Source: Escherichia coli (lineage in GTDB: Bacteria > Pseudomonadota > Gammaproteobacteria > Enterobacterales > Enterobacteriaceae). Taken from it: DNA of 64,000 nt. Both the position numbers and the translations under genes were made by a program. Below the pieces are notes generated by a model. That model was not told where the DNA came from, ran no database searches, and saw only the letters and a list, made by a program, of their open reading frames with translations. Positions within the stretch are counted from its first letter, which is position 1; each line of letters begins with the position of its first letter. This document shows positions 16,784 to 17,383 of the stretch, piece by piece. Where the stretch lies: NCBI RefSeq assembly GCF_044324785.1, contig NZ_CP172127.1; one strand, given 5' to 3'.

Positions 16784-17383
16784 TCAGAACTTATAACCGA
16801 CGCCCACGATGAAACCGGCAGTGCGCCAGTCGCCACTGCCGGAGCCTTCATAAGCAATATCAATAGCCACGGATTCGGTCGGGTTAAACTGCACGCCAGC
16901 TCCCCACGCCAGAGAGGTGTTACTGTGGCGAGCGTCATCACTTCCGGTCAGCACGTCGTGCGTTTTTCCCTTGTTGTCAGTTACGCGGAGATAATCCCCG
17001 GAAAAAGTCGACACACGGCTGTAAGCCACGCCTGCCATCGCATACGCGCTGAACCATTCATTCACGCGTACAGACGGCCCCGCCATCACGCTGAACCAGC
17101 GGTTACGAACGGAATCTTCATGCCAGCGGGTATCGCTGTAATGGGTCAGCTGGCGATTCTTGTCTCCTGCATAGCTGAAAGACGTCACCATCCCCAGTGT
17201 GTCCGTAAACTCATAACGGTATTTCACGTTAATCCCGTTCAGATCATCGCTGCCGGGAACGTTCGTCGAGACATGAAGATACCCTGCGCTCAGCGTGGAC
17301 TGATGTTCAGACGCCCATGCAGGCGCACCGGATACGGCCAGACAAATGGCTGCGGACAAAATGGCGGCATAAAGTTTACGCAT
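16784..17383 (-). CDS. lom: Lom outer membrane protein (Ail/Lom family)
   Basis: 199-aa ORF with signal peptide and C-terminal beta-barrel ending …GVGYKF; position after J as in lambda. Confidence 0.85.
   Translation of the reverse strand: MRKLYAAILSAAICLAVSGAPAWASEHQSTLSAGYLHVSTNVPGSDDLNGINVKYRYEFTDTLGMVTSFSYAGDKNRQLTHYSDTRWHEDSVRNRWFSVMAGPSVRVNEWFSAYAMAGVAYSRVSTFSGDYLRVTDNKGKTHDVLTGSDDARHSNTSLAWGAGVQFNPTESVAIDIAYEGSGSGDWRTAGFIVGVGYKF

Follow-up and report, generated by a model that had tools for sequence, protein, structure and literature searches.

Outer-membrane genes lom, bor/iss and ompT on an apparently complete lambdoid prophage at argU in Escherichia coli

The genes lom and bor of phage lambda have been reported in reviews to be expressed in lysogens, with Lom contributing to adhesion and Bor to serum resistance (PMC3594210, PMC7067206), and lists of prophage virulence factors routinely include lom. 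The presence of lom, bor/iss and ompT on lambdoid prophages at the argU site is already known and is ordinary for Escherichia coli. Described relatives with which such genes can be compared are the cryptic prophage DLP12 of K-12, the free phage ev243 (Nesevirus ev243, NC_049955), Perceval, which is a prophage of the adherent-invasive E. coli strain LF82 (OV696612), and, for the single genes, lambda (J02459) and the Iss protein of ColV/ColBM-type IncF plasmids. Here we describe a 64-kb stretch of E. coli contig NZ_CP172127.1 (the window), which carries a lambdoid prophage 49,974 bp long, with an exact 47-bp direct repeat of the argU 3' part at its borders. An earlier note on this DNA had considered lom and bor to be retained, lambda-type, virulence-associated morons which, together with ompT, pointed to outer-membrane remodelling. 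The explanation we favour, and which we consider probable, is a complete argU prophage whose three outer-membrane genes fall into two wiring classes: bor/iss and ompT are AT-rich accessory genes outside the late operon, most likely under the host PhoPQ system, and lom is an Ail/OmpX-type eight-stranded barrel gene within the tail-gene operon, on the late strand and bracketed by two terminators.

The prophage has the predicted features of a DLP12-type lambdoid element, namely a tRNA-adjacent integrase gene, att repeats, a cos site, and head, tail, lysis, replication and immunity modules, with its late genes on the minus strand (Table 1), and it is apparently a complete cos-type lambdoid prophage. 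Its integrase is identical to that of ev243 at 386 of 387 residues and to IntD of K-12 at 384 of 387. Since it has the same borders as those annotated for DLP12 in MG1655 and this degree of identity to IntD, the element is the undeleted counterpart of DLP12, and the word "retained" in the earlier note is therefore apt. The chromosomal flank on the envY side reads envY-ybcH-nfrA-nfrB, and the open reading frames (ORFs) beyond argU, at 57763-63993, have the sizes and order of what we take to be the K-12 fimZ-sfmF/H/D/C fimbrial cluster; because of these two flanks, the insertion site can be identified as the canonical DLP12 locus.

The lom gene is intact and lies exactly where it had been placed, after J, beginning 69 nt past the J stop codon and ending 58 nt ahead of the stf start. 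Lom matches the Ail_Lom profile over its full length (399.6 bits; cut-off 23), its residues 1-199 aligning with profile positions 1-199. The position between J and stf is fixed in lambda, 434, Perceval, ev243 and strain A8, of 5426 complete E. coli genomes 5020 had matches to the J-lom-stf segment, at a median of three places per genome, and Lom-family protein clusters hold up to ~25,000 member sequences. The best matches to the window among these complete genomes are mosaic and 98-99% identical. The lambda-type label given to lom thus holds for family and position, but not for the allele: identity to the lambda protein is no more than 47%, so that the high identity along the whole length that would mark the lambda allele is not seen, while the Lom proteins of Perceval, ev243, 434 and strain A8 agree with it at 191-192 of 199 residues (96%). 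Judged by its sequence, the gene is the common allele of 434, Perceval and Shiga toxin (Stx) phages, not that of lambda. Nucleotide alignment with lambda places a mosaic junction inside lom: the two sequences are diverged over the J-lom spacer and the initial ~430 nt of the gene, and nearly identical from its final ~170 nt through the downstream terminator to the beginning of stf.

By inspection, Lom begins with a Sec signal peptide, MRKLYAAILSAAICLAVSGAPAWA followed by SE, with cleavage between APAWA and SEHQ, and its C-terminus VGVGYKF ends in an aromatic residue that fits the beta-signal of the beta-barrel assembly machinery (BAM). An AlphaFold2 (AF2) model made with 20 homologues predicts eight long strands, the first two at low confidence, and an N-terminal helix at residues 2-18 that would be the signal peptide (mean predicted local distance difference test score, pLDDT, 75). 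The best Foldseek matches of this model were Ail (3qrc, 3.6e-9; also 3qra) and OmpX (1qj9, 5.3e-8), and a sequence search of the PDB gave lambda Lom (9wso, E=1e-48) first, followed by OmpX and Ail (1e-17 to 1e-18). The fold, as modelled, is regarded as secure. Lom fell below the NCBIfam equivalog cut-offs, scoring 112 bits where the model for Rck-type "resistance to complement killing" requires 258 and 99 bits where that for OmpX requires 176, and complement-resistance or invasin activity cannot be transferred to Lom by homology.

Both intergenic regions around lom contain an intrinsic-terminator hairpin with a T-run. The one between J and lom ends 27 nt ahead of the lom ATG, and lambda has at this position a hairpin and T-run with another stem sequence, which suggests that structure, not sequence, has been kept; the one between lom and stf is nearly identical in lambda, 434 and Perceval. 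Strict and relaxed scans (at least 8 of 12 matches), which are blind to activator-dependent promoters, found no sigma-70-like promoter within 317 nt upstream of lom. Of the arrangement that would mark a moron, an own promoter with a downstream terminator, lom therefore has terminators on both sides and no sigma-70-like promoter in the scanned stretch, and its G+C content (0.552), close to that of J (0.559) and stf (0.532), lacks the distinct composition of a moron. In lambda biology, Q-modified polymerase reads through terminators of this kind. Transcription of lom would most likely occur mainly through Q-antiterminated read-through together with the tail genes in lytic growth, while in the lysogen any production of Lom would be weak or conditional, the terminators insulating the gene from stray transcription.

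Expression patterns were taken from papers on near-identical alleles and are carried over to the window by analogy. In the RNA sequencing (RNA-seq) data of LF82, given as log2(fpkm+5), where fpkm is fragments per kilobase per million, with a floor of 2.32 (tables S1 and S4 of PMC9928086), the 96%-identical lom of Perceval stayed at the detection floor in five conditions covering lysogeny broth (LB), Dulbecco's modified Eagle medium (DMEM) and macrophages, with 0-8 raw reads per sample and values of 3.2-3.6 in LB overnight, ~2.6 in DMEM and 2.3-2.9 in macrophages. Lom is also absent from the morons called by the authors of that study, and the J-lom intergenic region differs between the window and Perceval by 1 nt. 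We infer late-only expression, and expression of this lom variant in the lysogen appears doubtful. With no promoter found, late-gene G+C content and silence in LF82, the term moron appears not to fit lom by the criteria considered here.

The same features have to be weighed under a different explanation, according to which lom serves the phage as a late tail or host-range gene, its product acting from the membrane of the producing cell on interactions between phage and receptor, for example by limiting re-adsorption of progeny to debris or by excluding other phages, and any part in virulence is incidental. The fixed position between J and stf, the late strand and late-gene composition, the insulating terminators readable by Q-modified polymerase and the silence in the LF82 lysogen would all be expected, and allelic mosaicism with an intragenic junction resembles that of host-range modules. 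Moreover, the PDB entry 9wso, newer than April 2026, lists "Outer membrane protein lom" of lambda as chain C (2 chains) in a multi-chain entry, which suggests a partner, and the entry may reveal what Lom binds and hence what it does. However, J and Stf sequence queries of the PDB do not match 9wso, the literature searched held neither direct evidence of a phage-directed activity nor anything relevant on a newer Lom function, and lambda lom deletions are viable. We hold this explanation to be quite unlikely. In its most specific form, the explanation makes the common non-lambda lom allele a late-expressed part of the tail and host-range module, and not a lysogenic-conversion gene; Lom would have a specific protein partner and would influence phage-receptor traffic on the surface of the cell that produces it. 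This version is compatible with the two terminators, the missing promoter, the late composition, the silence in LF82 and the multi-chain PDB entry, and we give it a small chance only. If it were true, the "virulence moron" label would have passed from lambda to this allele untested.

The bor/iss gene, which the two-class explanation assigns to the accessory class, is likewise intact and was placed exactly by the earlier note, opposite the lysis genes; it is convergent with Rz and lies between the lysis genes and cos, as in lambda, Perceval, ev243 and K-12. Its product scores 106.7 bits against the Lambda_Bor profile (cut-off 25) and carries the lipobox ITGC (LITG-C17-A-Q), so that Cys17 and a +2 residue (Ala) other than Asp provide the lipoprotein signal of the family. 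A +2 residue other than Asp directs lipoproteins to the outer membrane. An alternative in-frame ATG at 37109, 15 nt upstream of the bor ATG, would yield a 102-aa form beginning with MQDNK; the AGGA found 8 nt before the ATG at 37124, inside the MQDNK stretch, is better read as a ribosome-binding site. A PDB sequence search found no solved structure related to Bor, and Bor had no match in NCBIfam. The protein is identical to Bor of ev243 (97/97), as are the 134 nt upstream of the gene, and it shares 96 of 97 residues with ColV-plasmid Iss (the only change being L83F) and 89 of 97 with lambda Bor, differing from K-12 BorD at nine residues. The plasmid Iss of this comparison is encoded by an IncF gene to which AMRFinderPlus gives an Iss score of 100%, and a 99%-identical protein is named Iss by the Prokaryotic Genome Annotation Pipeline (PGAP). 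The gene called bor in this window is best typed as an iss-type allele, and lambda-type describes its family and place, but not an allele that is one residue away from ColV Iss and eight from lambda.

An argU-associated prophage of avian pathogenic E. coli (APEC) is relevant to the description of Bor as a serum-resistance lipoprotein. In APEC O78-9, a chromosomal iss is located on a ~50-kb "argU-associated, bor-like" prophage and is transcribed, yet even when overexpressed it did not substitute for ColV-plasmid iss in serum growth, nor did bor, and serum survival was conferred by the plasmid iss allele only (PMC4313913). Because the related chromosomal iss failed in that strain, serum resistance is by analogy not secure for the allele in the window.

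PhoP boxes were scanned as (T/G)GTTTA-N5-(T/G)GTTTA, that is KGTTTA-N5-KGTTTA. The perfect box upstream of ompT is identical in K-12, and ompT has in this respect the upstream box of a PhoP-regulon member. The 48.5 kb of lambda contain a single perfect box, which lies 52 nt ahead of bor, against 0.02 expected by chance, and K-12 borD has the same perfect box. Minagawa et al. are said to have described the PhoP box of borD in 2003. At the position occupied in lambda bor and K-12 borD by this perfect box, TGTTTAGGGTTTGTTTA, the window has a degenerate, PhoP-box-like repeat, CATTTAACTATCGTTTA, and the iss-type alleles of the window, ev243, Perceval and the ColV plasmid all read CATTTA-N5-CGTTTA there. 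Together with a candidate -10 hexamer, the repeat forms an island that is conserved between otherwise diverged bor upstream regions. The only match of a sigma-70 scan of bor, GTCACA-18-AACAAT, would give an almost leaderless mRNA and was set aside in favour of this island. Another PhoP-box-like repeat with one mismatch, TGTTTAATTTTTATTTA, occurs at 47207-47223 between the ybcK and emrE regions, and the same repeat is found in Perceval at 39180-39196.

In composition, bor (G+C 0.418) and ompT (0.436) stand apart from the prophage as a whole (0.505), and bor also from its neighbours (0.515 for Rz and 0.529). Neither gene belongs to the late operon: bor/iss is encoded on the other strand and ends at a hairpin, and ompT lies in the b-region. 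In K-12, ompT and borD have been listed among the genes activated by phosphorylated PhoP (PMC11495068). In the LF82 data, Bor increased from 4.4/4.1 in LB overnight to 8.1-8.5 in DMEM and 10.8-11.1 in macrophages (log2 fold change 7.1), in parallel in macrophages with the canonical PhoP target mgrB (~8 in LB, ~8.7 in DMEM and 12.6-13.9 in macrophages), and ompT increased from 5.5/3.7 to 6.8-7.7 and 9.2. The proximal upstream and promoter region of bor is identical in the window and Perceval. Distinct composition and an own transcription unit, together with prophage expression as seen for Perceval, justify calling bor/iss a moron. For the window allele we infer PhoP control and any phenotype: PhoPQ would turn on bor/iss and ompT in low Mg2+, acid or macrophage-like conditions, and a surface lipoprotein and a surface protease would be added to the outer membrane. 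The outer-membrane remodelling proposed in the earlier note would accordingly be plausible in this strain for bor/iss and ompT, whose K-12 counterparts borD and ompT are reported to be PhoP-activated and whose LF82 counterparts are induced in macrophages.

As well, ompT belongs to the element, as had been claimed, being situated inside the 47-bp att repeats and next to attR. The catalytic residues D83, D85, D210 and H212 of the omptins are present. About ten isolated phages, among them ev243, 2G7b, PhiR49_1 and PhiR26_1, also have the gene beside att, and ev243 carries Lom, OmpT, a porin and Bor. Since ompT stands beside att in isolated and propagated phages including ev243, it is real phage cargo and not a mere neighbour. 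The possibility that the ompT end is a relic of an older prophage was also considered, and a search for tail-fibre-assembly remnants between ompT and tfa matched only tfa itself; A8 and K-12 do have such remnants.

Several points weigh against the assignment of the three genes to two wiring classes. Since lambda lom is reported by the reviews cited above to be expressed in lysogens, a weak or activator-dependent lom promoter may lie in the 3' end of J; an array study left lambda lom undetected and noted its promoter as uncharacterised (PMC2147009). The box-like repeat of the iss-type alleles has three mismatches, one of which affects the conserved G in the first half-site, and PhoP binding to it is putative. 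The induction of Bor and ompT in LF82 could stem from another regulator, and those data come from another strain and prophage, with Perceval at ~1.17-1.22 Mb and ompT of LF82 at ~0.56 Mb, not adjacent to each other.

Part of this evidence would favour the classical explanation, in which lom and bor are autonomous morons with their own promoters in a repressed prophage, Lom providing adhesion and Bor serum resistance, and ompT completes a virulence surface package. The genes are intact and match their families, the terminators flanking lom fit a cassette, Bor was strongly expressed in LF82 under host-like conditions, and the reviews describe just such expression and functions for lambda. It is difficult to reconcile, however, with a lom whose product shares 47% identity with the lambda protein examined in earlier work, and which has no detectable promoter, was silent in LF82 in five conditions and shows no compositional signature of foreign origin, or with the failure of chromosomal iss and bor to restore serum survival in APEC O78-9 (PMC4313913). 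We consider the classical explanation unlikely, and the two-class explanation is retained.

The intactness of the genes also bears on the idea that all three are neutral passengers on the way to decay, as in many cryptic prophages. A neighbouring AraC-family cargo gene has two frameshifts, and K-12 has lost lom altogether. On the other hand, none of the three ORFs is truncated and their signal, lipobox or catalytic features are intact, Bor is identical in the viable phage ev243, the J-lom terminator has kept its hairpin and T-run although the stem differs from that of lambda, and the spread of Lom and of the J-lom-stf segment over the clusters and genomes mentioned above would not be expected of decaying genes. 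Neutral decay is regarded as very improbable, and the prophage with two classes of outer-membrane genes is preferred to it.

Table 1. Positions of the prophage borders, genes and signals in the 64-kb window.
Feature	Position	Strand	Evidence or remark
lom, Ail/Lom family, 199 aa, intact	16784..17383	-	Pfam PF06316 Ail_Lom, E=3e-120
J, tail-tip attachment protein, 1137 aa, immediately upstream of lom	17453..20866	-	Seven J-specific Pfam domains; PDB 8iyk lambda J, E=0
stf, side tail fibre, 1135 aa, directly downstream of lom	13318..16725	-	Pfam phage_tail_N, Gp34_trimer, Collar
tfa, tail-fibre assembly gene, after stf	12737-13318		Pfam Caudo_TAP
Intrinsic-terminator hairpin and T-run, J-lom	17411..17434	-	Terminator scan; -15.6 kcal/mol, z=-3.8; annotated in 434
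Intrinsic-terminator hairpin and T-run, lom-stf	16736..16757	-	Terminator scan; -18.1 kcal/mol; annotated as terminator in 434
bor/iss, 97-aa outer-membrane lipoprotein precursor, intact	37124..37417	+	Pfam PF06291 Lambda_Bor, E=6e-31
Degenerate PhoP-box-like repeat CATTTAACTATCGTTTA	37058..37074	+	3 mismatches to KGTTTA-N5-KGTTTA; putative function
Candidate -10 hexamer TAGGAT (lambda TACGAT)	37087..37092	+	12 nt after box-like repeat; conservation island; putative
Strong hairpin between convergent bor and Rz	37424..37449		-20.6 kcal/mol, z=-3.8; identical in lambda
ompT, omptin outer-membrane protease, 317 aa	8047..9000	+	Pfam PF01278 Omptin, E=5.5e-130
Perfect PhoP box TGTTTATATTTTGTTTA	7947..7963	-	84 nt upstream of ompT; only perfect one in the window
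attR-side att core copy, 47 bp	7578..7624	+	Exact repeat of argU 3' part; between envY and ompT
attL-side att core, argU 3' part	57505-57551		Exact 47-bp repeat of 7578-7624
argU, tRNA-Arg(tct)	57507-57583	-	ARAGORN
Integrase gene, 387 aa	56328-57491	+	Abuts argU
Lambda-type cos cohesive-end sequence GGGCGGCGACCT	36359..36370	-	Exact match; between Nu1 and bor
Lysis cassette	37449..38619	-	ORFs; relatives annotated rzpD/rrrD/essD
Rz	37449-37922	-	
Rz1 lipoprotein, embedded in Rz	37508-37690	-	Lipobox VVGC
R, lysozyme	37907-38404	-	
S, holin	38404-38619	-	
Blc-like lipocalin lipoprotein, envelope-targeted cargo between Q and lysis genes	41041..41565	+	Lipocalin_2, 7e-44; lipobox LIAC

Among the neighbours of lom, the C-terminal receptor-binding part of J (17453-18730, residues 713-1136) matched the PDB entries 9wca/9wcb, named "A8 gpJ 713", at E=1e-209 and lambda J (8xcj) at E=1e-199. 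Among genomes, the J-lom region was best matched by that of E. coli strain A8, which comes from mice, and the name it shares with "A8 gpJ" may be a coincidence. The stf product has a long, low-complexity middle part rich in Ala, Ser and Thr (~residues 110-470) and a C-terminus resembling T4 gp37 (PDB 2xgf, E=7e-83), and long spurious ORFs are found on the strand opposite the repetitive part of stf.

Beside the Blc-like lipocalin, where DLP12 of K-12, Perceval and ev243 have an nmpC/ompC-type porin, the window carries a gene of the YbgA/DUF1722 and 2-thiouracil-desulfurase-like type (39889-40848, minus strand), and the arrangement of YbgA-like and lipocalin genes is also present in an icd-site prophage of E. 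coli strain 20. The AraC-family gene (38811-39537, minus strand), which has the lysis genes on one side and the YbgA-like gene on the other, is broken up into three reading frames; strain 20 has an intact 243-aa homologue with 99.3% nucleotide identity and two gaps, and the gene in the window is either a pseudogene with two frameshifts or the product of a sequencing error.

The b-region at 9231-12617 beside ompT is AT-rich (G+C 0.40) and contains genes for an S-adenosylmethionine (SAM)-dependent methyltransferase (a ybcY homologue), two tandem DUF892 proteins (YciE/YciF-like) and a manganese catalase, which looks like a putative oxidative or general stress cassette on the prophage. The ybcY homologue of LF82 was induced in macrophages along with ompT. 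The nin region at 43803-47793 holds DLP12-type cargo, namely ybcM (AraC-type), ybcL (Raf-kinase-inhibitor-like), ybcK and emrE, as in K-12 and Perceval; ybcK (45626-47152) encodes a large serine recombinase.

The practical value of these comparisons is one of annotation hygiene. Typing tools would score the bor of this window as the virulence marker iss, and the related chromosomal iss of APEC suggests that serum resistance may be missing. Most E. coli carry a lom allele in which half of the residues differ from those of the tested one, and lom of a near-identical allele was silent in the one lysogen transcriptome examined, that of LF82. A single phage would show a contrast in wiring, bor/iss and ompT appearing responsive to host signals and lom being embedded in the late operon.

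Compared with known outer-membrane proteins, Lom shares the eight-stranded barrel fold of Ail of Yersinia, OmpX of E. coli, and Rck and PagC of Salmonella, but is only 26-30% identical to them. Lambda has lom of the same family between J and stf with flanking hairpins at the same places, and bor of the same family, also convergent with Rz and upstream of cos, differing from the window at 8 of 97 residues. The Iss of ColV/ColBM-type plasmids agrees with the window in 96 of 97 residues, in the MQDNK-encoding leader and in the CATTTA-N5-CGTTTA motif, but is plasmid-borne instead of prophage-borne, and the upstream sequence beyond about -70 differs by indels.

Among whole elements, ev243 and Perceval each cover ~31-32 kb of the 50-kb prophage at ~97% identity. 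The former has an identical Bor, 191 of 199 Lom residues, OmpT next to att and 386 of 387 integrase residues in common with the window, and the latter shares 192 of 199 residues of Lom and 96 of 97 of Bor. Both differ from the window in having the porin gene between Q and S in place of the YbgA-like and lipocalin genes; ev243 differs further in its lambda-type immunity with rexAB, and Perceval carries sitABCD, is integrated elsewhere and is without ompT. DLP12 of K-12 MG1655 occupies the same argU site, one border lying within argU and the other between ompT and envY, and shares the cargo genes emrE, ybcK/L/M, rusA, bor and ompT. It carries nmpC::IS5 and appY, its borD is a lambda-type allele with a perfect PhoP box, and the region from a terminase fragment to tfaD, including J, lom and stf, has been deleted in K-12, whereas the element of the window is full length.

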